The position numbers were made by a program, and so were the translations under genes. The notes below the pieces were generated by a model. The model ran no database searches and was not told the origin of the DNA. It saw only the letters and a program-made list of their open reading frames with translations. A DNA stretch of 42,222 nucleotides from a virus. This document shows positions 1 to 42,222 of the stretch, in pieces. Location: positions 1 to 42,222 of the IMG/VR virus record IMGVR_UViG_2728369266_000002; one strand, written 5' to 3'. Numbering within the stretch: position 1 is the first letter of the stretch; the number at the start of each line of letters is the position of its first letter.

Positions 1-95
1 TGAGAACCAGAGGGCTGACGGCCCCATGACGGCCCCAGAGACCCTTGTCGCAGCAACGGAGCAGGTATAGCGTGGAAACACTCCAAACGATCCTG
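1..95. repeat. Left copy of the 95-bp perfect direct repeat (identical to 42128..42222)
   Basis: Base-by-base identity read from the sequence. It contains the last 23 codons and stop of the integrase reading frame, and a tandem 11-mer TGACGGCCCCA x2 at 16..37. Confidence 0.95.
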
Positions 96-569: not shown

Positions 570-1367
570 GTGGAACACAGTAACGAATCCGCCCCGTCCG
601 CGACGGTGCGTCGGACCGGTCAGCGTGTGGCCGCGCAGGCGCTGAGCCTGGCGCTGGGCGTTGATCTGCCGGTGGCGGACTGGAGCATCGACCGCCGGGG
701 CGACCGGCTCTACGGCCAGTTCGGCGCCGACAGCATCGACGCGGTGACCGCCTGGGCGGAGCGCTTCGGCGGCGAGGTCGAGTACTTCCTGACCGGCTAC
801 CGGATGGCGCTGGTGCACCTGGACCTGTTCGGGACTCCGGCGCGGGTGTGGTGCCCGCTGAGCGGTGACCCCGGTACGGAGCTGCCCGCCGAGCCGCCGG
901 CCCCGGTCGAGTCGCTGAGCGTCGGTTCGCAGGCCGTCGTCGGCCTTGGCGACCGCTCGCCCGCCCCGGGTACCTTCTCCGAGTTGGCCGACCGGGCGGA
1001 GCGGCGCCGCGCCGAGCTGCGTGCGGCCCCGGTCTACATCCCGCCGACGCCCACCGTGTTGGGCGCCACGCTGCGGCTGGCCGCGCAGGTCGCCGACGAG
1101 CTGGGCGAGGTGCCCGGCACCCAGGCCACCGTCTACTCCGACCTGGCCGGCCGCCCGGTGGTCGACATCAGCGTCCCCTCCCGGCAGCCGATCGAGCACC
1201 GCCGGGCGCTGGTCGACGCGGCCGCCGCCCTGGGGCAGGTCACCACCGCCGAGCACCGGGGCGCCCGCCTCGCCGAGCTGACGATCCACGACTACGAGGG
1301 TTCGGGTGCCGAGGTCTGGGTGGGCGCCCGTATCCGCGACGAGGCCGACGCGGAGGCGACCCGATGA
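570..1367 (+). CDS. Hypothetical protein with two similar ~100-aa halves
   Basis: The GTG start has AGGAG 8 nt upstream and the composition is protein-like. The stop overlaps the next start (ATGA at 1364..1367). Confidence 0.75.
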   Translation: MEHSNESAPSATVRRTGQRVAAQALSLALGVDLPVADWSIDRRGDRLYGQFGADSIDAVTAWAERFGGEVEYFLTGYRMALVHLDLFGTPARVWCPLSGDPGTELPAEPPAPVESLSVGSQAVVGLGDRSPAPGTFSELADRAERRRAELRAAPVYIPPTPTVLGATLRLAAQVADELGEVPGTQATVYSDLAGRPVVDISVPSRQPIEHRRALVDAAAALGQVTTAEHRGARLAELTIHDYEGSGAEVWVGARIRDEADAEATR

Positions 1368-2689
1368 GCGACTTCGTCTTCTCCCTGCCCCCGGCAATCC
1401 TGGCGGTGCTGACCGTGGCGGCCGTGGCGGTCCCGGCGCTGGTGGTGTGGCTGGTGTGGCGGTCGGTCAGCGAGATGGCGAAGCGGTTCGCCAAGGGCGG
1501 CACCACCGCCCTGCTCGCCTTCTTCGTCGCGGTCACCATGGCGCTGAGCGCGTCCGGGCTGATCGGGTTCGGGTACGGCGAGATGGGCCTGGACGGGTGG
1601 CTGACGCCGCTGAGCGTGGCCGTGTTCCTCGCCCTGGACGGCGCGGCGCTGGCGATCGCGCGCAGCGTGTGGCTGCTCAACCGCGACGGCAAGAGCGCGG
1701 GGGTGCACCGGGCGTTCATGTGGGTGCTCGTCGCCGCGTCGGCGTGGTTCAACTGGGTGCACGCGCCCGAGGTGTTCGCCGCCCAGGCCGCCTACGCGCT
1801 GTTCCCGGTGTCGGCGGCGGTGCTGTTCGAGCTGATCCTGGCCGCGCGCCGCAAGGCCGACGAGGTCATCGACCGGCGCATCGGGGTGGAGCGGTGGCTG
1901 CACCCGGTGGAGATGGTGCGGGTGCGCTGGCTGCTGGCCGCCGACGCGCAGTTGGCGGCCGATGTGGCGACCCGCCGGGTGCGCGTGCAGGCCGCCGCCA
2001 ACTCCCTGTACCGGGTGCGCCAGATGGCCGGGGCGCCGGCGCCGTTCGGGCTGGGGTGGGTGATGCCCGGCATCTACCGCAGGGCGGTACGGGCTGCCCA
2101 GGCCGCGGCCGCGCGGGCGGACTTCGCCGACCCCCTGGCGGCCGCCGAGGTGGTCCGCCAGTTGCAGGTGCTCACCCTCGTCGAGCGGTTCGCCGGGGCG
2201 GACTACCGCACCCCGCACGAGGCCCGCGACCTGGTCGCCAACCTCATCACCCCCGCCAACCTCGGAGTTGGCGGGGGTGCCGACGAGGTCGGCCTGTACG
2301 CGGAGTTCCGGGCGATCCTCGCCGGGGTCGGCCTGGACGCCGCACCGGCGGAGCGGCCGCATCTGGCGGTGGTCGCCGAGCAGCCGCCCACCCCCGCCAA
2401 CCACGGGGGCGGCGCCGTCGAGCCGGGCCCGACCGCTCCCGCCTGGTCGCTGGAGGAGGCCGCCGCGGCGGTCGACTGGGGTGCCGTCCCGGCCGAGGAG
2501 GTTGGCGGCCTGGTGGCGGATCTGGCGGCGGACTTCGTGACCGACCGCCAGGACTCTGGCGCCCCGGCGTGGGGGGCGGGCAAGACCTTCGCCCGCGCCC
2601 TGCTCGCGGCCGGCTGCCCGCTGTCGGACCGCCAGCTGCGCGACTACGTCAAGCGCGCCCAGCGCGACCTGGAGTCCACCGGCTCCTGA
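1364..2689 (+). CDS. Polytopic membrane protein, DUF2637-like (Spd-like candidate)
   Basis: ATGA coupling to the upstream gene. Several hydrophobic helices lie in the first ~170 aa, followed by an Ala/Arg-rich soluble C-terminal half. The gene sits directly upstream of the FtsK/SpoIIIE gene. The family assignment is from memory. Confidence 0.7.
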   Translation: MSDFVFSLPPAILAVLTVAAVAVPALVVWLVWRSVSEMAKRFAKGGTTALLAFFVAVTMALSASGLIGFGYGEMGLDGWLTPLSVAVFLALDGAALAIARSVWLLNRDGKSAGVHRAFMWVLVAASAWFNWVHAPEVFAAQAAYALFPVSAAVLFELILAARRKADEVIDRRIGVERWLHPVEMVRVRWLLAADAQLAADVATRRVRVQAAANSLYRVRQMAGAPAPFGLGWVMPGIYRRAVRAAQAAAARADFADPLAAAEVVRQLQVLTLVERFAGADYRTPHEARDLVANLITPANLGVGGGADEVGLYAEFRAILAGVGLDAAPAERPHLAVVAEQPPTPANHGGGAVEPGPTAPAWSLEEAAAAVDWGAVPAEEVGGLVADLAADFVTDRQDSGAPAWGAGKTFARALLAAGCPLSDRQLRDYVKRAQRDLESTGS

Positions 2690-2793: not shown

Positions 2794-2943
2794 ATGGCCA
2801 AGATCAGGGTCTACGCCAAGGACGGATCGGTCCTGGACGTCACCACAGAAAACCTCGACGACCAGCGGTTTTATGAGGACCTGCCGTTCAACTCCGACGC
2901 CGTGAGCAGGGTGACGGTCGTCGAGGAACGCGACGAGAAGTAG
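2794..2943 (+). CDS. Small hypothetical protein (49 aa)
   Basis: The ATG at 2794 is preceded by GAAGGGA, with an alternative ATG at 2779. The sequence is non-repetitive and acidic (MAKIRVYAKDGSVLDV...). Confidence 0.55.
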   Translation: MAKIRVYAKDGSVLDVTTENLDDQRFYEDLPFNSDAVSRVTVVEERDEK

Positions 2944-2948
2944 CCGGT

Positions 2949-2991
2949 CCGGGCCGCCGCTGCGATCCCTGGCAGGAACGCGGCGGCCCGG
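2949..2991 (+). terminator. Stem-loop between the small ORF and the FtsK-like gene
   Basis: CCGGGCCGCCGC (2949..2960) pairs perfectly with GCGGCGGCCCGG (2980..2991), with a 19-nt loop. Confidence 0.4.
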
Positions 2992-3031
2992 ATGCCCCAC
3001 ATCCTTCGATGAGGAACGGAGCCCCACCAGC

Positions 3032-5155
3032 ATGGCACTGCTGTCCCACCGGCCGGAAGAGTCCGGCGAGGTCGAGCGGAAGGTGTTCGACGGCGAGATC
3101 GTCGACGAGGCGCCCACCGACACCGTCCGGGTGGACGAGGTGCGCGTGGACGCCCCCGAGGTGTTGGACGACACCGGGTCGTGGGTGGCGCGGCGCCGCG
3201 CCCTGCTGGCCGACGCGCCGCCGATCATCCCTCCGTACCTGCGCACCCGCGAGCAGTTGGAGGAGACCGCGCGGTGGGCGGTGGCCTACTACGCGCACGT
3301 CGGCGCGTTCCACGCCACCCGCTCCCCGTTCTACATGCTGCGCCTCATGGCTCGCTCCCCGCGCGGCGCGGGGCGGCTGATCGGCCGCTGGGTGGCGTGG
3401 GTGGCCGACGCCCAGGCCGCGCCCGTGCACGCCAAGGTCGCCGCGTCCGGCGACGTGCAAGCGTGGCTGGTGCTGTCGCGCGAGCACTCCCGCCGGGTCA
3501 AGCCGCGCCGCATCACCTCCGCCGTGGTCGCGGTCCCGGTGGCGCTGGCGATGCTGACCGCGGTGCTGGTGATGCCCGCCTGGGTGAGCGGGCTGGGGGT
3601 GTGGCTGCTGCTGTGCCTGCTCGGGCTGGCCGGTGGGGACCCTGACCGGCCCCTGATCGCCCGCTACGTGGCCGCCCAGCTCCAGCGGCCGCTGGCCTCC
3701 CCGGAGATCGAGGCGGCGCTGGAGGCCATCGGCATCAAGGGCAAGGTCGACTTCGTCGAGCAGATCGCCGTCGACGGCCCCGGCTGGCGCGCCGAACTCG
3801 ACCTCCCGCCGGGGGTGCTGGCCGAGCGGCTGCTGGACAAGCGCAAGGAGCTGGCCGGGGCGATGCGCCGCCCCCTGCAGTGCGTCTGGCCGAGCGTGGG
3901 CAGCGAGCATCCGTCGCGGGCGGTGCTGTGGGTGGCCAAGCGCGACCCCCGCACCATCAAGCGCGCGTGGCCGCTGCTCGCCGACGGCCAGGCCGACATG
4001 TACGCCGCGTTCCCCTTCGGCGTCACCCCCCGCGGGGAGACCGTGCCGCTGACCCTGATCGGCACCAACGTCCTCATCGGCGGCGTGATGGGGTCGGGGA
4101 AGACCAGCGCGGTGCTGGTGATCGCGCTGGCCGGGGCGCTGGACCCCACCTGCCAACTGTGGCTGTTCGAGCTGAAGGGCTCCGGGGACATGGAGTCCGT
4201 CCAGCCCGTCGCCCACCGCTACGTCCAAGGCGACGACGACGAGCACTGCCACGCCGCCCTGGACGCCATGTACGCGCTGGAGGCCGAGCTGAAGCGCCGC
4301 AAGAAGATCGTCGCCGCGCTGCCGGTGGAAGACGTCCCCACCGGCCGCAAGGTCACCCGCGCCCTGGCCGACAAGTACCCGCACCTGGACCTGGACCCGA
4401 TCCTGGCCATCTTCGACGAGGTGCACACCGTCTTCGAGCACCCCGAGGTCGGCAAGGAAGCCGCCGAGGTCGCCGGCCGCCTGATCCGCAAGGCGCGCGC
4501 CTACGGGATCATCCTCGTGCTCACCACCCAGAAACCCGACGGCGACTCCATCCCCAAGATGGTGTCCGACAACGCCATTGTCCGGTTCTGCTTGGCGATC
4601 ACCGGGCACATCGCCAACGACCTGGTGCTGGGCACCGGCATGTACAAACGCGGCATCCGCGCCAACATCTTCGAACCCGCCGAGGGCGACGACCCCAAGG
4701 ATTCGGGAACCGGCTGGCTGACCCGCTCGGCCACCAGCGCCAAGATCGTGCGCGCCTACTTCATCGGCCAGGCCGACGCCCGCGCCGTCGGCCGCCGCGC
4801 CCTCGCGCTGCGCACCGCCGCCGGGACGCTGACCGGGGAGGCCGCCGGACGCACCGTCGAGCCCGTGGTGCGCGAGACGATCGCCGACCACCTGCACGCG
4901 GTGTGGCCCGAGGGCGCCGACCGGGTGCACTCCCACCGCCTCGTGGAAGCCCTGGCCGCCTACCGGCCCGAGCTGTACGCCCCGTGGCTGGAAGAGGACG
5001 ACCCCGCCGCCCGCTCCACCACCCTGGCCGCCGCCCTCAAACCCCACCGCATCCCCACCCACCAGCTCACCATCCGCGACTGCTGCGGCGGCGCCAAGGG
5101 CGTGCGCCACCAGGACCTCCCGCCCGCCAAGACCCCCGCCGACGACGACGAATAG
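3032..5155 (+). CDS. FtsK/SpoIIIE-family DNA translocase, TraB/TraSA-like (conjugative-type)
   Basis: Walker A is GVMGSGKTS (about 4081..4110) and Walker B is ILAIFDEVH (about 4400..4426). Hydrophobic helices lie near aa 165-200 and the C-terminal tail is helical. The ATG has GGAG upstream. Confidence 0.9.
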   Translation: MALLSHRPEESGEVERKVFDGEIVDEAPTDTVRVDEVRVDAPEVLDDTGSWVARRRALLADAPPIIPPYLRTREQLEETARWAVAYYAHVGAFHATRSPFYMLRLMARSPRGAGRLIGRWVAWVADAQAAPVHAKVAASGDVQAWLVLSREHSRRVKPRRITSAVVAVPVALAMLTAVLVMPAWVSGLGVWLLLCLLGLAGGDPDRPLIARYVAAQLQRPLASPEIEAALEAIGIKGKVDFVEQIAVDGPGWRAELDLPPGVLAERLLDKRKELAGAMRRPLQCVWPSVGSEHPSRAVLWVAKRDPRTIKRAWPLLADGQADMYAAFPFGVTPRGETVPLTLIGTNVLIGGVMGSGKTSAVLVIALAGALDPTCQLWLFELKGSGDMESVQPVAHRYVQGDDDEHCHAALDAMYALEAELKRRKKIVAALPVEDVPTGRKVTRALADKYPHLDLDPILAIFDEVHTVFEHPEVGKEAAEVAGRLIRKARAYGIILVLTTQKPDGDSIPKMVSDNAIVRFCLAITGHIANDLVLGTGMYKRGIRANIFEPAEGDDPKDSGTGWLTRSATSAKIVRAYFIGQADARAVGRRALALRTAAGTLTGEAAGRTVEPVVRETIADHLHAVWPEGADRVHSHRLVEALAAYRPELYAPWLEEDDPAARSTTLAAALKPHRIPTHQLTIRDCCGGAKGVRHQDLPPAKTPADDDE

Positions 5156-5183
5156 CGCCCGGAAGGCCCCGTCGGCCACCACC

Positions 5184-5283
5184 CCGAAACCCGATATCAG
5201 CCCAGGTCACACACCATTCCAGCCGACATCGCAGGCGAAACCGGTTTCACGGCCAGGCGAAACCACCACCCCCACCCGAAACC
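5184..5283. repeat. Four copies of CGAAACC just downstream of the FtsK-like gene (candidate clt/TRS repeats)
   Basis: CCGAAACC occurs at 5184..5191, AGGCGAAACC at 5233..5242 and 5255..5264, and CCGAAACC at 5276..5283. The palindrome GAAACCGGTTTC lies at 5237..5248. Confidence 0.6.
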
Positions 5284-5288
5284 AGTCC

Positions 5289-5311
5289 GCGGCCCCTCCC
5301 GGTGGGGCCGC
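5289..5311 (+). terminator. Stem-loop GCGGCCCC-tcccggt-GGGGCCGC
   Basis: Perfect 8-bp stem with a 7-nt loop, about 135 nt after the FtsK-like stop. Confidence 0.45.
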
Positions 5312-5319
5312 GAACGGGG

Positions 5320-5352
5320 GGTGCACATGCACCCGCCGGTGCACGTACACCC
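5320..5352. repeat. Direct 15-mer repeat GGTGCACaTgCACCC / GGTGCACgTaCACCC
   Basis: Copies at 5320..5334 and 5338..5352 are 13/15 identical. Each contains the GTGCAC palindrome. Confidence 0.6.
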
Positions 5353-5373
5353 CGACCGAGGTCCCCAGGACCT

Positions 5374-5434
5374 CAGTCGTGGCCGTCTCACCCACGACTG
5401 CCCCAGGCTTTCAACCGTGGGCGAGACGGCCACG
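5374..5434. repeat. Nested, mutually exclusive inverted repeats (structured DNA or RNA element)
   Basis: CAGTCGTGG (5374..5382) pairs with CCACGACTG (5392..5400). The 19-mer CGTGGCCGTCTCaCCCACG (5379..5397) pairs with CGTGGGcGAGACGGCCACG (5416..5434), with one mismatch. Confidence 0.55.
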
Positions 5435-5498
5435 GTTACCGGCACCGGCAAGCTGGCCGACCTGCACGAATCTGCGGGGCCCTTTGGGGGCCTCGCAA

Positions 5499-5522
5499 GG
5501 GGTACGGACTAGTCCGTACCCC
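5499..5522. repeat. Perfect 24-bp palindrome GGGGTACGGACTAGTCCGTACCCC
   Basis: Read directly from the sequence. It lies between the convergent FtsK-like and NUDIX genes and could act as a bidirectional terminator or a dimer-binding site. Confidence 0.6.
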
Positions 5523-5523
5523 T

Positions 5524-5545
5524 GGGTACACGCTGCCGTGTACCC
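5524..5545 (-). terminator. Hairpin GGGTACACG-ctgc-CGTGTACCC, 10 nt downstream of the NUDIX stop
   Basis: Perfect 9-bp stem with a 4-nt loop. The arms share the GGGTACA/TGTACCC core with the hairpin at 33611..33639. Confidence 0.55.
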
Positions 5546-5554
5546 CCTGCGCGT

Positions 5555-6046
5555 TCACCCCAGGTACGGCTCGCCGTCCTTCAGGCCGTGGTCGATGCGG
5601 CGGCGGATCGCGGGGTGGATGTCGTAGTCGCCGAGGTCGGCCGGGTCGACCCACCGGACTTCGAACGCCTCGCTGGGCTCGGGCTGGATCCGGCCGCCGA
5701 CGGGGCGGCCGCGGAAGCAGGTGTTGATGGGCTGGCGGACCTCGTCGACCTTGCCGCGCTTGATGTAGGCGATGAGGTGGTCGGGGTCGGAGAAGATCCC
5801 GACGAGGCCGGTGACCTCGATGTCGATGCCGGTCTCCTCCTTGCACTCCCGGATGCCGGCCTGGGCGACGGTCTCCCCGGTCTTCACGCCGCCGGTGGGG
5901 ATGGTCCACAGGTTGTTGTCGGTGCGCTGCAGGAGCAGCACCCGTCCGCGGTCGTCGCGGACGAACACCGACGCGGACGCTTTGCGGCTGGTGGGGGCGG
6001 GGGCGTTGGGGTCTTGCCAGTAATCGATCCTGCGGGTACGGGTCAT
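5555..6046 (-). CDS. NUDIX hydrolase (Pif-like candidate)
   Basis: The NUDIX box is GGVKTGETVAQAGIRECKEETGI (about 5826..5894). The ATG at 6046 overlaps the upstream stop (ATGA). The longer ORF start at 6088 is less likely. Confidence 0.9.
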   Translation of the reverse strand: MTRTRRIDYWQDPNAPAPTSRKASASVFVRDDRGRVLLLQRTDNNLWTIPTGGVKTGETVAQAGIRECKEETGIDIEVTGLVGIFSDPDHLIAYIKRGKVDEVRQPINTCFRGRPVGGRIQPEPSEAFEVRWVDPADLGDYDIHPAIRRRIDHGLKDGEPYLG

Positions 6047-6786
6047 CGGTGCTCCAGTGCCATGTCGGCGGGCTTCGCCGATCCCCATACCCGCTCGAAG
6101 CTCTCGACGTAGGTGGTGAAGTAGGCGCCGTCGATGCGGCGCAGGTGCATGGTGGGGGTGTAGGCGGCCAGCACTCCGTAGGCGTGGACGTTGACGATCA
6201 TCTCGTCGTCGAACCGGTAGATGCTGTTGTACAGCGGAGTGTCGTGCAGCCGCACCTCCACCGAGGGCGGCATCCGCTCCCGGTAGTAGTACAGGACGGC
6301 GGCGACCCGCCCGGCCACGCCGCCGCCGATGCGGTGCTCGGTGTCGCGGAACGCCAGCTGCTTGCCGTCGGGATCACCCAGCAGCAGCCGCACCCGGGCG
6401 CCGGCCTGGGCCTTGGCGACCAGGGTCGGAATCCAGTCCGGGTGCTCCTCGGTGAGGAACAGCCCCGCGTAGGCCAGCAGGTCGACGTCGCGCTCGGCCG
6501 CGCGCAGCAGCTCGGTCCACAGGTGCTTGGGGACGTCGTTGCGGCGCGGCCAGGTGGCCACCAGCTCCGCCCCGGCCAGCGAGGCGCCGTTGACGGTGTC
6601 GGGCCACAGGTAGCTCTCGTCCTCCTGGACGATCGCCGCCACCCGGTAGCGGGTGCGCGGGTAGGGCACGGCCGTCCCGGCCAGCCACCGTTCGACGGTC
6701 TTCGTCGACACCTCGGCCGCCGCGGCGAAGGACCGGATGTCGTGCCCGGCCCGGTGCATCGCCCGCCGGAGCCGTTCGTTCACCAT
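6043..6786 (-). CDS. XRE-family HTH regulator with a ~180-aa C-terminal domain (DUF5919-like, from memory)
   Basis: The N-terminal HTH is IRSFAAAAEVSTKTVERWLAG. The gene is translationally coupled to the NUDIX gene and divergent from 6858..7172. Confidence 0.85.
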   Translation of the reverse strand: MVNERLRRAMHRAGHDIRSFAAAAEVSTKTVERWLAGTAVPYPRTRYRVAAIVQEDESYLWPDTVNGASLAGAELVATWPRRNDVPKHLWTELLRAAERDVDLLAYAGLFLTEEHPDWIPTLVAKAQAGARVRLLLGDPDGKQLAFRDTEHRIGGGVAGRVAAVLYYYRERMPPSVEVRLHDTPLYNSIYRFDDEMIVNVHAYGVLAAYTPTMHLRRIDGAYFTTYVESFERVWGSAKPADMALEHR

Positions 6787-8009: not shown

Positions 8010-8039
8010 AGCGCCCCCGCTCCGAAGAGCGGGGGCGCT
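8010..8039. terminator. Bidirectional terminator hairpin between convergent genes
   Basis: AGCGCCCCCGCTC-cgaa-GAGCGGGGGCGCT, a perfect 13-bp stem with a 4-nt loop. Confidence 0.7.
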
Positions 8040-8059: not shown

Positions 8060-8335
8060 TCAGGCCGCCAGGTCGTACTCCGGCCGGCGCCGGGTGAGCC
8101 CCAGCGACAGCAGGATGCGGCCCCATACCGGCGACACGTAGGTCTCCAGCGCGCGGGCGATCCCGTAGTAGGCGGCCGTCACAGCCACGGTGACGATCTC
8201 GGTGACCGCGCCCTCCGGCAGTTCGACACCGAGGCGGAGCGCCTGCACGAGCAGGACGCCAACGGCGACCGGCACGACGGTGCGCAGGATGGAGGCGAGC
8301 AGGCCGGGCGGGGGCGGATCAGAGTGGTGGACCAT
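8060..8335 (-). CDS. Two-TM membrane protein, putative holin or lysis accessory protein
   Basis: The ATG at 8335 is preceded by GGAGGGAAT. There are two hydrophobic helices. It is the last gene of the late operon, next to the endolysin. Confidence 0.7.
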   Translation of the reverse strand: MVHHSDPPPPGLLASILRTVVPVAVGVLLVQALRLGVELPEGAVTEIVTVAVTAAYYGIARALETYVSPVWGRILLSLGLTRRRPEYDLAA

Positions 8336-26016: not shown

Positions 26017-27672
26017 TCACCTCCGGCGCGTCGAGGACGCGGTGTAGATATAGGCGCCGCGCTTTTTGGCCAGGCCGGCGGCGATGACGTCCCCCAGCGC
26101 CTCGTGCGCCAGGATCGAGGGGATGACGGCGTCGATCTTCTGCGTCGGGCTGGCCTTGCGCAGCACGTAGCGGTCACCGGGGCGGGCCGCGGCACGAGCG
26201 TTGGCGATGTGGTCGGCGGTGATCTCACACCCGTCATGGGCGAAGGTGGCATCCTTCTTGGTGACGTCGGTGCGCAGCCGCTCGCAGGCGGCGTGCATCT
26301 GGACGATGCGGCGGGTGTGCCAGCGGATCACCCGCTCCTCGCCGTAGAGGTCGACCCAGTCGTCGACCTCGGTCTCCCAGTACGGAGGGTCCGCGTACAG
26401 CCGCACCACGTCGAAGCGGCGCATCACCTCGTCCATGCCCGCGCGCACCTCCGCACGCGGCACCTGCCCGCCGAAGTCGGCCGGGTTCCAGACCGCCGGC
26501 TGCCGGTCGGGGCCCACCAGCGGCGTGAACTGGAAGCCGTCCATGGTCTCGCAGCGGATCGCCGTCCAGTCATCGACGTCGGACCCGTCGAACCCGGCCA
26601 CGATGCGGGTCCGGTCCGGCACCGCGCGGGGCGCGGCCCGCCGCTCCCAGGCCGCCGGGTCCAGCCACGAGCTGGTGCCGGCCACGCACCGGTTGCCGAA
26701 GAACCGCTCGGCCTGGGCGGGGTCCTTCTCCATCAGCTCGGCGGCCTCGGCCTCGATGGCGTCCAGGTCCACGTGGTCGCTGCCCGCGTAGACGTAGGCA
26801 TGGATGCGGCGGCGCTGCCGCTTGTCTCGGTAGGACCAGGTCTTGGGGGCCTGGGGGTGGTAGCGGAAGATGTCCTTGGCCTTGGACTCCGAGGTGCGCC
26901 GGGCGGTGGAGTCCTCGCCGGGGTCCCAGGCGTTGGTGGTCTCGATCGCCCGGCCGCCCATGCCCGCCAGGCCGCGGCGCTGCGCCTCGGCGACCGAGGT
27001 CATCCTGTTCGCCGGGGTGTAGATCCCGGTCTCGTCCTGCAGCGCGAACACGATCGGGTTGCCCAGCCGGCTGCGCGCCGAGGAGGTGACGACGTCGATG
27101 CGGCCGCCGCCGGACCCGGTGCGGATGCGGGTGAACTCCTCGCCCACCGTCAGCACGTCGGCCAGCGGCCCGGCGGCCACCGTCGCCTTCAGGTGCCCGT
27201 AGACGTTCGTCTCGACTTGGTCGCTGCTCACGCCCAGCAGCTGGATCAGCGGGTCGTGCCAGGGGCGGCCCATCGGCTCTCCTGCCTCATAGCGGTACCA
27301 CCACCCGCACTCGCACCCGTGGTCGGCGCACCGGTAGACCTCACCGCCGACCGCCCACCCGGCGAAGACCACCGGGCCCACCGCCTCGGCCAGCGAGATG
27401 AACGCCGACCACGGCCCTTTGCCGGTCTTCTGCGGCGCCACCACCAGGGAGCGCCGGCAGTGGAACGCGGTCGCCAGCTGCCCGACCACCGCAGTCGGCC
27501 GAACCCGGTAGTGGCTGACCGTGCACCACAGCTGCCACCGGTACAGCTCCAGGTCCTCACCGGCGCGGAACCCGCCGGGCACCGGGCAGTGCGCCTCGAT
27601 CCACTCCGGCACGATCCACAGCGTCGGGAAGTCGACGACGAACTCGGCGGAGGCGTCAGCCGCCTTCGCCAT
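26017..27672 (-). CDS. terL: Terminase large subunit
   Basis: A Walker A-like motif VVAPQKTGKGPW is present, and the C-terminal half is nuclease-like. 551 aa. The gene overlaps TerS by 17 nt. Confidence 0.9.
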   Translation of the reverse strand: MAKAADASAEFVVDFPTLWIVPEWIEAHCPVPGGFRAGEDLELYRWQLWCTVSHYRVRPTAVVGQLATAFHCRRSLVVAPQKTGKGPWSAFISLAEAVGPVVFAGWAVGGEVYRCADHGCECGWWYRYEAGEPMGRPWHDPLIQLLGVSSDQVETNVYGHLKATVAAGPLADVLTVGEEFTRIRTGSGGGRIDVVTSSARSRLGNPIVFALQDETGIYTPANRMTSVAEAQRRGLAGMGGRAIETTNAWDPGEDSTARRTSESKAKDIFRYHPQAPKTWSYRDKRQRRRIHAYVYAGSDHVDLDAIEAEAAELMEKDPAQAERFFGNRCVAGTSSWLDPAAWERRAAPRAVPDRTRIVAGFDGSDVDDWTAIRCETMDGFQFTPLVGPDRQPAVWNPADFGGQVPRAEVRAGMDEVMRRFDVVRLYADPPYWETEVDDWVDLYGEERVIRWHTRRIVQMHAACERLRTDVTKKDATFAHDGCEITADHIANARAAARPGDRYVLRKASPTQKIDAVIPSILAHEALGDVIAAGLAKKRGAYIYTASSTRRR

Positions 27673-28138
27673 CGCGCACGACCCTCATCCGGTCGCGCAC
27701 CGACCGCCGCATCGGCACGATCGGCGCCGGCGCGGACTCGTCCGACTCGATGGCGGCCGCCGCCGGGGCGATCTTCCACCGGTTGCGCAGCATCCCCTGC
27801 ACCGACAGCCCCAGGCTGTCGAGGTACTGGCGCACGACCTTCTGCAGCTCCACGCTCGCACGCGGCAGTTCGGCCTCGGCGAGCTTGCGGACGAACATCG
27901 CCACCTCGTAGCGCTGGTCCAGCCGCTCCCACATCACAGCCTGCGGACGCGACCACAGGTCGAGCCACAGGTCCCACTCCCGCGGCTGCAGGTCGATCAG
28001 CGGCCACTCCGGCGGATCACCCGCCCGCCCCTCGGCGGGCAGCGTCACCCACCCTGCCTTGTCGTCCTTGCGGTTACGCCGCAGCGCGTTGGGGTCCGGT
28101 GCCGGACCCGACACCACGCGGGCACCTCCACGAGACAT
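27656..28138 (-). CDS. terS: Terminase small subunit (P27-like)
   Basis: The ATG at 28138 has AGGAGG 9 nt upstream, and the track start is GTG 28171. The call rests on the motif GPAPDPNALRRNRKD and on position between the HNH and TerL genes. Confidence 0.75.
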   Translation of the reverse strand: MSRGGARVVSGPAPDPNALRRNRKDDKAGWVTLPAEGRAGDPPEWPLIDLQPREWDLWLDLWSRPQAVMWERLDQRYEVAMFVRKLAEAELPRASVELQKVVRQYLDSLGLSVQGMLRNRWKIAPAAAAIESDESAPAPIVPMRRSVRDRMRVVRDGEGG

Positions 28139-28171
28139 CGGCCCTCGCCTCCTCGCCGCGTTGCGCGGCAC

Positions 28172-33260: not shown

Positions 33261-33289
33261 GGCTACTCCGTTCGGGTTGGACGTGAATT

Positions 33290-33640
33290 CGACTGGGGGT
33301 ACCGGGGGTACGTGCGTGCCCCCGGGCGCTCGCACGCGTCCCCGTTCCGGCGTTTCCGCAGGTGGGAATGGTCGAAGAATTGGATAGGTATAGGTATAGG
33401 TACTAATGGAGCCATTAAGGCGAACCGTGAAATGTGCCCCTGGGGTGTGTGCGCAGGCGGGGGGAGGTACCCGTGGTGCCCCTGGTGCCCCTGCTGGGGG
33501 TCGGTGGCCGTAGCTGCGCAGGTCGGCGGGCATCTCGTTGCGGGTACACGCGGGTACCCGTGGTGTACCCCTGGTACCCCCAGTCTCGGGACCGGGGGCA
33601 CCGGGGGACCACTGCGGGTACATGGCGTGTACCCGCAGTC
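33290..33640. repeat. Iteron-like block of tandem 6-10-mers with a GTAC core plus an AT-rich island (candidate origin or operator array)
   Basis: Tandem pairs: GGGGGTAC(C/G) x2 at 33295..33312, GGTGCCCCT x2 at 33476..33493, CGGGTAC(A/C)CG x2 at 33541..33560 and ACCGGGGG(C/A) x2 at 33591..33608. GGATA-GGTATA-GGTATA-GGTAC lies at 33382..33403. The palindrome TAATGGagCCATTA lies at 33404..33417. GTGTACCC lies at 33563..33570 and GGTACCCC at 33573..33580. Confidence 0.7.
33611..33639 (-). terminator. Hairpin 20 nt downstream of the primase gene stop
   Basis: ACTGCGGGTACA-tggcg-TGTACCCGCAGT, a perfect 12-bp stem. Confidence 0.6.
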
Positions 33641-33658
33641 GGTTCGGGCGGCGGGGGT

Positions 33659-39128: not shown

Positions 39129-39437
39129 TCAGTCCGACAGCGACGCCGCGCGCTGGGCGTTCAGCCACGCGATCAGCTCGGACTTCCACGCGACGCGGCG
39201 GCCGCGCAGCTTCCAGATCGGCGGCGCGTCTTCGCCGCCCTTCAGGATCCAGTCCCTGACGGTCCCCTCGGGGCGACGCACCAGGTCGCAGATCTCCGGC
39301 ATGGACAGCAGGGCGTCGCCCTTGGTGCCCACCGCGAGCTGGGTTGCTCCAGCGGGGGCCTTGACCTGCGAGGATGTGATTCTGCGAGCGTTTGTTCGCC
39401 GATTCACATGGGGGTTGCTACCCTGAGACGCGGGCAT
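39129..39437 (-). CDS. Excisionase/AlpA-type HTH DNA-binding protein (Xis or Cro-like), first gene of the leftward early operon
   Basis: The ATG at 39437 is preceded by GGAGTGAAGC. The motif is LLSMPEICDLVRRPEGTVRDWI...WKLRGRRVAWKSELIAWL. Confidence 0.75.
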   Translation of the reverse strand: MPASQGSNPHVNRRTNARRITSSQVKAPAGATQLAVGTKGDALLSMPEICDLVRRPEGTVRDWILKGGEDAPPIWKLRGRRVAWKSELIAWLNAQRAASLSD

Positions 39438-40892: not shown

Positions 40893-42197
40893 GTGGCCCA
40901 CATCGAGGACCGCTGGTACCGGGAGGTGCGCGACGCCGACGGGAAGGTCCACAAGGAGAAGAAGGACCGGTACGGCGTCGGCAAGCGGTACCGGGTCCGG
41001 TACTACGACCTCGACGGCAACGAGCACAACGAGTCCTTCGAGAAGCTGACGCCCGCGAAGCGGTTCCTCGCCGAGGTGCAGGCCGACGAGGCGCGGGGCG
41101 TCTTCAACGACCCCAAGGCCGGCGACGTGTCGCTGCGGAAGTACAGCGCCGAATGGCTGGAGAACCAGAGCTTCGGCCGGTCGTCGTATGAGGTGGTCGA
41201 GTCGCGCCTGCGGCTGCACGTGTGGCCGACGCTCGGCACGCATTCGCTCGCCCAGCTGGCGCGCCGCCCGTCGCTGATCCAGAACTGGGTGCGCGGCCTC
41301 CAGGCGGCCGGCCTCGCGCCGACCTACATCGCGGCGATCCTCGGGCATGTCTCCACGGTCCTGAAGGCCGGCGTGGACGACGGCCTGGTCGCGCGGAACC
41401 CGTGCGACTCCAGCTCGGTGAAGGCTCCGAAGGCGGTGCCCCGCAAGGTGGTGCCGTGGACGCCGTCGCGAGTCGAAGCGATCCGCGGCGGGATGTCCGA
41501 GCGGTATCGGGCGACCGTGGACCTGGGGGCCTGCTGCGGCCACCGCCAGGGCGAGGTGTTCGGCCTGGCGGTGGCCGACCTCGACCGCAAGGGGAAGATG
41601 GTCCGCGTCCGCCGCCAGGTCAAGATCGTGGGTAACCGGCTCGTCTTCGCGCCGCCCAAGCATGGGCGCGAGCGAGAGGCGCCGCTTCCGAACCTGGTCG
41701 TCGATCGCCTCGACGCGCACCTGGAGCGCTTCCCGGCGGTGCCGGTCACCCTGCCGTGGGAGGAGCCGGACGGGGTGCTGGTGACGCACAAGCTCGTCTT
41801 CACCACCCAGCGCGGCGGCGCGATCGGCCGGTACTACTACAACCCCTACGTCTGGCGCCCCGCCGTCGAGCCCGTCCTGGTGAAGGCCGGCGTCCTGCCC
41901 GTGCTGATCGAGGGCGAGAAGCGGGGCTCGATGCGGGACTACGGGTTCCACCAGCTCCGCCACAGCTTCGCCAGCGTGCAGCTCGACGGCGGCACGTCGA
42001 TCCGCGCGCTGGCGGAATGGCTGGGCCACGCGGACCCGTCCATCACGCTGCGGATCTACAGCCACCTGATGCCCGACAGCGACGGTCGAGGGCGTGGCGT
42101 CATCGATATGGCGTATAGATACGATCTTGAGAACCAGAGGGCTGACGGCCCCATGACGGCCCCAGAGACCCTTGTCGCAGCAACGGAGCAGGTATAG
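40893..42197 (+). CDS. int: Tyrosine integrase
   Basis: The C-terminal catalytic motifs are HQLRHSFAS, LGHADPSITLRIYSH. The N-terminal arm-binding type domain is RWYREVRDADGK...RYRVRYYD. The last 23 codons lie inside the 95-bp repeat. Confidence 0.95.
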   Translation: MAHIEDRWYREVRDADGKVHKEKKDRYGVGKRYRVRYYDLDGNEHNESFEKLTPAKRFLAEVQADEARGVFNDPKAGDVSLRKYSAEWLENQSFGRSSYEVVESRLRLHVWPTLGTHSLAQLARRPSLIQNWVRGLQAAGLAPTYIAAILGHVSTVLKAGVDDGLVARNPCDSSSVKAPKAVPRKVVPWTPSRVEAIRGGMSERYRATVDLGACCGHRQGEVFGLAVADLDRKGKMVRVRRQVKIVGNRLVFAPPKHGREREAPLPNLVVDRLDAHLERFPAVPVTLPWEEPDGVLVTHKLVFTTQRGGAIGRYYYNPYVWRPAVEPVLVKAGVLPVLIEGEKRGSMRDYGFHQLRHSFASVQLDGGTSIRALAEWLGHADPSITLRIYSHLMPDSDGRGRGVIDMAYRYDLENQRADGPMTAPETLVAATEQV

Positions 42198-42222
42198 CGT
42201 GGAAACACTCCAAACGATCCTG
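42128..42222. repeat. Right copy of the 95-bp perfect direct repeat
   Basis: Identical to 1..95. The window ends with the repeat, so its full extent is unknown. Confidence 0.95.

Follow-up and report, generated by a model that had tools for sequence, protein, structure and literature searches.

The DNA translocase TraB assembles into hexamers at clt, a site whose 8-bp repeats it reads through a C-terminal winged helix (PMC4170104, PMC4447253). Here we describe a candidate clt in the virus record IMGVR_UViG_2728369266_000002, an entire 42,222-bp contig of Allonocardiopsis opalescens with a G+C content of ~72% (the window, hereafter). The candidate is a repeat cassette of about 130 bp, at approximately 5162-5293, immediately downstream of a gene for a TraB-like translocase. 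We regard the cassette as the probable recognition site of that translocase, because it follows the traB stop in essentially every TraB of the clade, because different repeats occupy that position in other TraB clades, and because the same method, applied to the Streptomyces venezuelae plasmid pSVH1 as a control, yields the word GACCCGGA.

In the clt of pSVH1, as in the window, the repeats come right after the traB stop, consist of a 7-8-bp word and are placed approximately whole helical turns apart. The word differs, being GACCCGGA in pSVH1 and (C/G)CGAAACC in the window, and pSVH1 has neither the 14-bp palindrome nor the GATATC elements described below. The two molecules also differ in kind, pSVH1 being a 12.6-kb rolling-circle plasmid and the window a 42-kb phage genome, and TraB binding has been demonstrated for pSVH1, whereas for the cassette of the window it is predicted. 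The minimal clt of pIJ101 comprises an imperfect inverted repeat, which is essential, plus three short G(C/A)AAC direct repeats (PMC3583192). This Streptomyces lividans plasmid and the window, compared by description only, have in common an inverted repeat and a GAAAC-like core, but the clt of pIJ101 lies near korB and not directly past tra, and its repeats are 5 bp long. In pWTY27, a theta-type Streptomyces plasmid, clt contains inverted repeats and four copies of the 7-bp word TGACACC, gives a footprint with the Tra protein and is needed in cis; it begins 16 bp inside the tra gene and extends ~160 bp beyond it (PMC3583192). Such an overlap with the 3' end of tra is found in some relatives of the window as well, whereas the word and the host element are different, and experimental proof exists only for pWTY27. 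A 2022 survey notes that a clt motif has yet to be described even for pSAM2, the archetypal integrative element (PMC9513070).

FtsK with its orienting polar sequences (KOPS) and SpoIIIE with its recognition sequences (SRS) offer a further likeness, namely a hexameric motor of the FtsK family whose C-terminal domain reads an 8-bp word (PMC4447253, and general knowledge). KOPS and SRS are, however, dispersed and strand-polarised over the chromosome, whereas the words of the window form one local cluster.

The repeat cassette after traB

The cassette lies in a gap (5156-5554) between the stops of the 707-aa FtsK/SpoIIIE-family gene on the plus strand (3032..5155), here called traB, and of a convergent NUDIX gene on the minus strand. 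Small open reading frames (ORFs) in the gap were rejected on codon-position G+C: their third-position values (0.76-0.78) are far below those of the flanking genes (0.93-0.97), so there is no credible ORF, as an earlier sequence-only reading of this DNA had also stated. We found no tRNA in the gap and no Rfam family that reached its gathering score; at E<=1 there were just two matches to microRNA precursors, which are hairpin noise. The segment 5100-5620 had no DNA match among plasmid records. A small RNA gene in the gap is conceivable.

The sequence-only reading had proposed that the whole 400-bp locus is a clt, pointing to its position and repeat structure after the FtsK-like gene. That argument agrees well with the conserved cassette, the clade-specific words and the pSVH1 control presented below, and the proposal is supported for the ~130 bp at 5162-5293, but not for the hairpins that fill the remainder of the gap. 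The word CGAAACC starts at 5185, 5236, 5258 and 5277, that is, 30-128 nt past the traB stop, exactly where that reading had placed its four copies, one of them within a palindrome. A genome-wide count, which it had asked for, gives 4 copies observed versus 0.96 expected from first-order composition, so that the four in 5185..5283 are the only ones in 42,222 bases; the reverse complement GGTTTCG, for which 1.8 copies are expected, has none in the window, and the 6-mer core GAAACC/GGTTTC occurs four further times elsewhere in it. The raw 7-mer count is weak evidence, because ~10% of dinucleotide shuffles of this GC-rich 399-nt gap hold some 7-mer at least four times on one strand. We therefore replaced the naive 'any 7-mer at least four times' statistic by a rarity-weighted Poisson test and by comparative counts. 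In this test four CGAAACC in 150 nt gave p 5.6e-12, joint top among the 7- and 8-mers of the window.

Read on the minus strand, on which it is colinear with the cassette that follows traB in relatives, the candidate clt (5162..5293) has the order GGTTTCG-12nt-GGTTTCG-8nt-TGAAACCGGTTTCG-5nt-GATGTC-26nt-GATATC-g-GGTTTCG. On the plus strand the first CGAAACC (5185..5191) is separated by one base from GATATC (5193-5198). The second belongs to a central 14-bp near-palindrome, CGAAACCGGTTTCA (5236..5249), made of this copy and one inverted copy, which reads CGAAACCGGTTTCG in relatives; within it the palindrome GAAACCGGTTTC is found at 5237. The third copy (5258..5264, plus strand) starts 22 nt past the start of the second, and the fourth (5277..5283, plus strand) 19 nt past that of the third. 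In all, GGTTTC(G) cores of 7-8 bp occur five times in the cassette, one of them inverted relative to the other four, the inverted core and its neighbour forming the palindrome, and the start-to-start distances of 19, 22 and 51 nt correspond to about two or five turns of the helix. One related locus (L109) has exactly the same 12-nt spacer, GGTGGGGGTGGT, and the unit around the first copy, GATATCgGGTTTCG on the minus strand, is common to five (L090, L010, L025, L091 and L094), of which L090 and L010 are among the closest relatives.

Conservation of the cassette among TraB relatives

For comparison we drew 169 related loci from metagenomes, viral contigs and the genomes of species representatives, and added the plasmid records of pSVH1 (L170) and NZ_CP107792.1 (L171). 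Of the 70 distinct loci in which TraB shares at least 50% identity with that of the window, 67 have a cluster of at least three GGTTTC/GAAACC copies at the traB stop. In the 303 nt around the stop these 70 loci contain 298 copies of the core, or 14.05 per kb versus 0.149 per kb elsewhere, a 94-fold difference. The architecture is fixed: GGTTTCG-12 nt-GGTTTC(A/G)-8 nt-CGAAACCGGTTTCG-5 nt-GATATC-16-38 nt-GTTTCGnGTTTCG (or GATATCgGGTTTCG). In four loci (L007, L008, L017 and L035) the cassette overlaps the 3' coding end of traB, with the first repeats inside the reading frame.

In the relatives the first repeat, the left half of the palindrome and the adjoining spacers form a 17-bp imperfect inverted repeat, in which several positions swap A-T and G-C on both sides and 88% of cells are paired. 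Cells with a double change number 58, versus 22 ± 7 in shuffles, and none of 500 shuffles reached the observed value. The GGTTTC cores themselves do not vary in sequence over a range of 50% protein divergence, no matter if they are part of the stem, part of the loop or lie outside stems. The relatives' cassette can be aligned without gaps to the reverse complement of 5162-5293. The palindrome of the window has TGAAACC on one side, as in L021, its GATGTC is a degenerate element, and the stem, on inspecting the alignment by eye, retains 10 Watson-Crick pairs and 3 G-T of 17. Only in the window, L056 and L049 is the cassette inverted relative to traB, and in all three the next gene is convergent.

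The gene beyond the cassette varies, there being either none or a member of one of at least four unrelated families (a small protein of WL..AKQA type, a 66-aa HTH_17-like protein, others, or a convergent gene), and the cassette stays at the 3' end of traB while these far-side genes change. No other protein of the window has homologues across these loci, except for packaging genes in a few of them. That traB alone is common to all loci is one of three lines of evidence that point to TraB as the partner of the cassette, the others being the words of other clades and the pSVH1 control, given below.

The 66-aa protein, MESQIIRPGHLTAHQTA..LG....VR.LV.RG.L.R.GG, is conserved directly past the cassette in many relatives, ~140-190 nt after the traB stop (L017, L018, L019, L023, L027, L033, L036, L040, L045, L052, L053, L054, L059, L101, L105 and L113). 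By eye it resembles an excisionase or MerR-type helix-turn-helix (HTH) protein, and in that subgroup it might be another protein that binds the region. The cassette of the window has no copy beside it, and the sole HTH_17-type ORF of the window (39129-39437) is located near int.

Repeat words of other TraB clades and the pSVH1 control

Clusters of at least three GGTTTC/GAAACC copies were found at the traB stop in none of the 50 loci whose TraB is 31-41% identical to that of the window. We searched the same 350-nt region around the traB stop in the other clades for repeats that are almost unique to their locus. AGGGAGG(CA) is present in 4-8 copies in ~20 loci, CCGCTAG(C) or GCCGCTACC in 4-9 copies, and GGTCCTAGGAC in 7-10 copies. 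Further words at the traB stops of distant clades are ACACCGACA, CCAGTGAG, CGAGTTAGC, GGTCGGAG and GACCCGA, and the plasmid NZ_CP107792.1 has GCTATCGATAGC. The distant-clade loci with repeat clusters of their own are L061-L084, L115-L157 and L171. Taken together, the clade words constitute a candidate table of TraB-to-word specificity.

As a positive control, the same procedure was run blind on pSVH1. It returned GACCCGGA, presumably the word read by the TraB of this plasmid, here also recovered de novo, at 8158, 8180, 8212 and 8233 and inverted at 8249. This array comes directly past the traB stop at 8142 and, as in the window, contains four direct copies and one inverted.

The cassette thus displays the anatomical traits of a clt. 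It stands at or after the 3' end of tra, with its first core 30 nt past the stop, a position shared by the 70 loci and pSVH1; it consists of several copies (four direct, one inverted) of a repeat in the 5-9-bp range that is rare elsewhere; it is accompanied by an inverted repeat (the 14-bp palindrome, and the 17-bp stem in relatives); and its word is specific to the cognate TraB, in a purely correlative sense. A clt for a TraB translocase is a known kind of site, and what is new lies in the details: the word, the architecture of the cassette, its inversion and its residence in a phage. By analogy with pSVH1, pWTY27 and pIJ101, TraB would load at the cassette onto double-stranded DNA and would pump it, with ATP, into the neighbouring hyphal compartment or a recipient cell.

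The TraB-like translocase

The protein encoded at 3032..5155 matches the FtsK_SpoIIIE family of Pfam (PF01580; E 5e-6, 26.6 bits against a cut-off of 24), and the clade profile matches the FtsK motor structures 2ius (E 3e-10) and 2iuu. Its translation contains the Walker A and Walker B motifs (GGVMGSGKTS and IFDEVH), hydrophobic segments around residues 190-232 and a long, N-proximal hydrophobic stretch, ITSAVVAVPVALAMLTAVLVMPAWVSGLGVWLLLCLLGLAG, which may be a membrane anchor. Among annotated proteins, the TraBs of small plasmids from Streptomyces and Pseudonocardia are closest to it, with 38-41% identity over 72-87% of the length; TraB of pSVH1, the best-studied example, is 33% identical over residues 221-577, the motor, and the 'FtsK-like' proteins of isolated phages are much more distant (22-27%). 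The protein thus combines an FtsK/SpoIIIE motor with homology to characterised plasmid TraBs.

The C-terminal ~80 residues (approximately 617-695) are modelled by AlphaFold2 with a predicted local distance difference test score above 90 and in the order H-b-H-H-H-b-b. The top Foldseek matches of this domain are nearly all winged-helix DNA binders (PadR, BlaI, Fur, forkhead and ORC), at E values of 0.18-1.4, which are not significant; on the model, a C-terminal winged helix is plausible. The members of the CGAAACC clade have the helix and wing of this domain in common (A[AR]ST.L..ALKP ... T.Q.T.R.CCGGAKG.R); in the TraB clades with other repeat words both are different.

A separate hairpin cluster in the rest of the gap

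Outside the conserved cassette, folding and a scan for perfect hairpins located seven tandem stem-loops on the minus strand at 5285..5545 (5288-5312, 5318-5353, 5350-5382, 5374-5438, 5474-5496, 5498-5523 and 5524-5545), and 4 of the 20 perfect hairpins of the window with a stem of at least 9 bp fall within 5288-5545. These elements had been described in the sequence-only reading, with small differences. The 15-mer direct repeat within 5320..5352 is there (5320-5334 / 5338-5352, 87% identical) and can equally be described as a 16-nt inverted repeat (5318-5333 / 5338-5353). The 19-nt arm pair also exists, with a nested pair (5374-5382 / 5392-5400), but is displaced by one base (5378-5396 / 5416-5434) and is complementary at 18 of 19 positions, while the palindrome reported as 24 bp is indeed perfect but measures 26 bp (5498-5523); the hairpin with a 9-bp stem at 5524-5545 was as described. 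A role in a clt is not supported, however, for the repeat with GTGCAC, the pair of 19-nt arms, the palindrome or the hairpin with the 9-bp stem, none of which is conserved beside any traB relative.

RNA folding gave z values of -9.95 for the minus strand and -9.04 for the plus strand, the minus-strand fold being 17 kcal/mol more stable (-194.1 vs -177.4). The mismatches of the two imperfect long stems are C·A or A·C on the plus strand, hence G·U on the minus strand, and such G-U pairs, occurring on the minus strand only, suggest an RNA structure at the 3' end of the NUDIX operon. Neither strand of 5156-5554 has a G+C-rich hairpin followed by a T/U run; tail-less terminators are common in high-G+C actinomycetes, so that a terminator function is conceivable all the same. 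The cluster is absent from every traB relative, where a gene starts within 80-300 nt of the cassette, and it is absent after the NUDIX gene in L172, the one relative of the HTH-NUDIX pair that extends past NUDIX. Because it is missing beside the relatives of both modules, we consider it specific to the junction of these two modules. Most likely, 5285-5545 is the structured 3' end, or the terminators, of the convergent operons, mainly of the minus-strand HTH-NUDIX transcript, and in the most economical reading the stack of hairpins would end or stabilise this transcript and keep traB transcription from reading through as well.

GGGTAC(A) palindromes, present in the last two stem-loops, are seen again at 33.3-33.65 kb. 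The window has three copies of GGGTACA and three of TGTACCC (~0.9 expected for each), exclusively in the 5524-5545 hairpin and in the region 33542-33634. This suggests a shared DNA-binding protein for 5498-5545 and the palindromes at 33.5 kb, so the last two palindromes may also be sites of a protein encoded by the element. When viral contigs were scanned for the GGGTAC palindrome pair as an exact pattern, no match was obtained.

The second of these places is a 396-bp intergenic region (33263-33658) beside the primase/DUF3987 gene, with three copies each of ATAGGT, GTGCCCCTGG and GCGGGTAC, two of GGGGGTAC and a hairpin at 33611-33639. Its repeats are as over-represented as the CGAAACC cluster in the rarity-weighted test, and it may hold an origin, iterons or operators.

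Alternative explanations for the cassette

Several observations weigh against a clt. In the window the cassette is inverted, the complementarity of the inner 8-bp stem is mostly lost and one GATATC is changed to GATGTC; this cassette could be a decaying copy. The covariation of the stem rests largely on two spacer haplotypes and few independent events, and clade and motif are linked by a correlation among deep clades, again with few independent events. For the C-terminal domain of TraB the best structural match to a winged helix is not significant (E 0.18), FtsK-gamma is absent from the top 50 Foldseek matches and a sequence search in the PDB gave no match. In addition, a 14-bp palindrome with flanking half-sites is a site of the type bound by dimeric repressors; a near-identical sequence, TGAAACCGGTTTCA, appears in papers on the Pseudomonas regulators PtxS/GntR, which we take to be LacI-family proteins with TGAAACCGGTTTCA as their operator; and most relatives have a co-directional ORF 80-300 nt past the cassette, in many cases that of the 66-aa HTH_17-like protein. 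These last points would fit an operator or promoter at which a dimeric factor of the element or the host, LacI/GalR-like or the small downstream HTH protein, binds CGAAACCGGTTTCG and the half-sites. We consider this explanation, by which the site would control the genes past traB or insulate the transcription of traB, the main alternative but unlikely, although such a role might coexist with that of a clt. With a convergent next gene and an inverted cassette, the window, L056 and L049 have nothing downstream to regulate, and among the other relatives the downstream families differ while the cassette is constant. There is no LacI-family protein among the 27 window proteins scanned with Pfam and no copy of the motif in the region upstream of traB, and the class of motif tracks the TraB clade. 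LacI/GalR operators are 14-16-bp palindromes of the TGNAANCGNTTNCA type with a cognate regulator, and the extra single cores at fixed spacing are unlike such sites; a regulator supplied by the host is conceivable. A model for another binder is provided by SpdA, a small DNA-binding protein of Streptomyces plasmids, and its site sps, a conserved 12-bp palindrome repeated two or three times near the protein's own gene (PMC4170104). However, sps lies within or beside spdA instead of at the end of traB, and transfer does not need it; unlike the word of the cassette, it does not vary with the TraB clade, for many plasmids share it in highly conserved form and a T insertion does not abolish its binding (PMC4170104).

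It is improbable that the whole 400-bp gap is a cluster of terminators, or a 3' untranslated region, with CGAAACC incidental to the stem-loops. The extremely stable fold (z -9 to -10), the arm mismatches that are G-U compatible on the minus strand only, with the more stable fold on that strand, and the 17-bp stem with compensatory changes that the first repeats form after the traB stop in relatives would all be expected under this explanation, but it accounts for 5285-5545 and not for 5162-5293. The cassette segment barely beats shuffles when folded (z -1.95), its GGTTTC cores are invariant in or out of stems, no hairpin has a T-run, and an inverted cassette is out of register with the transcription of traB. 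The repeats might instead be another cis-acting site, such as replication iterons, a partition centromere or cos/pac, for direct and inverted repeats are typical of iterons and centromeres too, and HNH, terS and terL follow the cassette at a distance of only 0.4-1 kb in L023, L027, L048 and L053. This is likewise improbable in our view: in the window the terminase genes (26017-28171) are 21-23 kb away and the primase/DUF3987 gene 28 kb away, and the cassette is still at traB; a separate, different repeat cluster lies beside the primase gene (33.26-33.66 kb); and no ParB-like gene is present among the proteins scanned. A cos/pac site, to which the order traB-cassette-HNH-terS-terL in relatives had drawn attention, was rejected on this distance to the terminase genes, and an attP at the cassette on the arm-type repeats that lie directly after int (~70-310). 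Chance clustering of a short word in GC-rich non-coding DNA, for which the ~10% of dinucleotide shuffles with some 7-mer at least four times might speak, has a negligible probability, the word being a rare, A/T-containing one with 0.96 copies expected in 42 kb (p 5.6e-12), and is refuted by the presence of the cassette in 67 of 70 related loci. The recognition site of the adjacent TraB remains the explanation that we favour.

Genes flanking the cassette

Upstream of traB the window has a gene for a DUF2637 membrane protein (1364..2689, plus strand), found in the same place in NZ_CP107792.1, L005, L008, L049 and L056. We considered this protein as a universal partner or binder, but only 19 of 68 loci of the clade had it upstream of traB according to a small hidden Markov model of DUF2637, which is a weak model. 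A 49-aa ORF (MAKIRVYAKDG..., 2794-2943) lies just upstream of traB, and three AGGAACG copies in and after it (2876-3026) may be a regulatory site for traB expression. Two more perfect hairpins with 13-bp stems are found at 2248-2279, inside the DUF2637 gene, and at 8010-8039, after small plus-strand ORFs at 7.2-8.0 kb.

On the other side of the gap, the NUDIX hydrolase gene (5555..6088, minus strand; Pfam NUDIX, E 1.3e-21) is preceded in the same operon by an HTH regulator-like gene (6043..6786, minus strand; PHROG transcriptional repressor, E 5.5e-5). The NUDIX gene is comparable to that of Pif, the immunity factor of pSAM2-type elements (PMC2440964). The same HTH-NUDIX pair is found in L172, with an HTH homologue of 76% and a NUDIX homologue of 62% identity, and there is no traB within 2.5 kb of it, so the pair is a separate mobile module. 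Beyond the pair, that 43.5-kb viral contig (3001-4220) has a small convergent gene and an ORF that, judged by eye on its N-terminal sequence, is integrase-like.

A probable TraB-clt module in a phage genome

The first 95 nt of the window (1-95) are identical to the last 95 (42128-42222), an overlap that covers the 3' end of the integrase gene, and the contig is therefore a closed circle or a concatemer of ~42,127 bp. It encodes a complete siphovirus-type set of proteins (terS, terL, an SPP1-type portal, an SU10-type capsid, a tape measure, tail proteins, a holin and an amidase), as well as a tyrosine integrase, a primase/DUF3987 protein and a helicase. The AT-richer stretch immediately past the integrase stop (70-310) contains repeated GACGGCC and GCGTTTGACCT(N)CAGGAC(C/T)GACG units and is probably an attP with arm-type sites.

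On the same molecule there is a gene set like that of the integrative and conjugative elements of actinomycetes (AICEs): int, an HTH regulator, NUDIX, DUF2637 and TraB. AICEs of the pSAM2 type likewise have a tyrosine integrase with attP-like repeats, an HTH regulator, a Pif-like NUDIX protein, a Tra translocase and a primase-type replication gene (PMC2440964). The circle of the window differs from them in also carrying terminase, portal, capsid, tape-measure, tail and lysis genes; an AICE is recognised by int, regulator, Tra and Rep, often with Nudix, and by having no virion genes, which are present here. What the window contains is a TraB-clt module, its clt a candidate predicted from the DNA, inside a phage and not on a plasmid.

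Many contigs of 34-43 kb that are classified as viral contain relatives of the TraB clade. The gene order traB, cassette, HNH, terS, terL, portal is found in L023, L027, L048 and L053, and the presence of packaging genes beside the cassette in relatives indicates that the TraB clade is a recurrent component of phage genomes. In these four loci, and in part in L016, L025, L052 and L113, genes homologous to HNH, terS, terL and portal of the window occur within 0.4-1 kb past the cassette, the TraBs being 52-56% identical to that of the window. In the literature searched, we found no description of phages or prophages that carry TraB. We tentatively propose that temperate siphoviruses of 35-45 kb, widespread in mycelial actinomycetes (Allonocardiopsis, Streptomyces, soil metagenomes), have a TraB and a clt of their own and might be self-transmissible by conjugation-like translocation in addition to virions.

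To our knowledge, clt has been experimentally defined for only a handful of small Streptomyces plasmids. The present locus offers a delimited candidate of 130 bp, with a 7-8-bp word, fixed spacers and a palindrome, common to a large TraB clade, and together with the words of the other clades it makes a ready specificity table for how the C-terminal domain of TraB reads DNA. In annotation, such loci could be marked automatically as a 'repeat cluster at the traB stop'. The conserved GGTTTCG cassette is also a handle that makes conjugation-like spread of phages testable. If such spread takes place, double-stranded phage DNA would move between hyphal compartments or into recipient mycelia, and the phage would be a self-transmissible conjugative element. 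If TraB-clt is active in phages, the line between transduction and conjugation would be blurred in the main antibiotic-producing bacteria.

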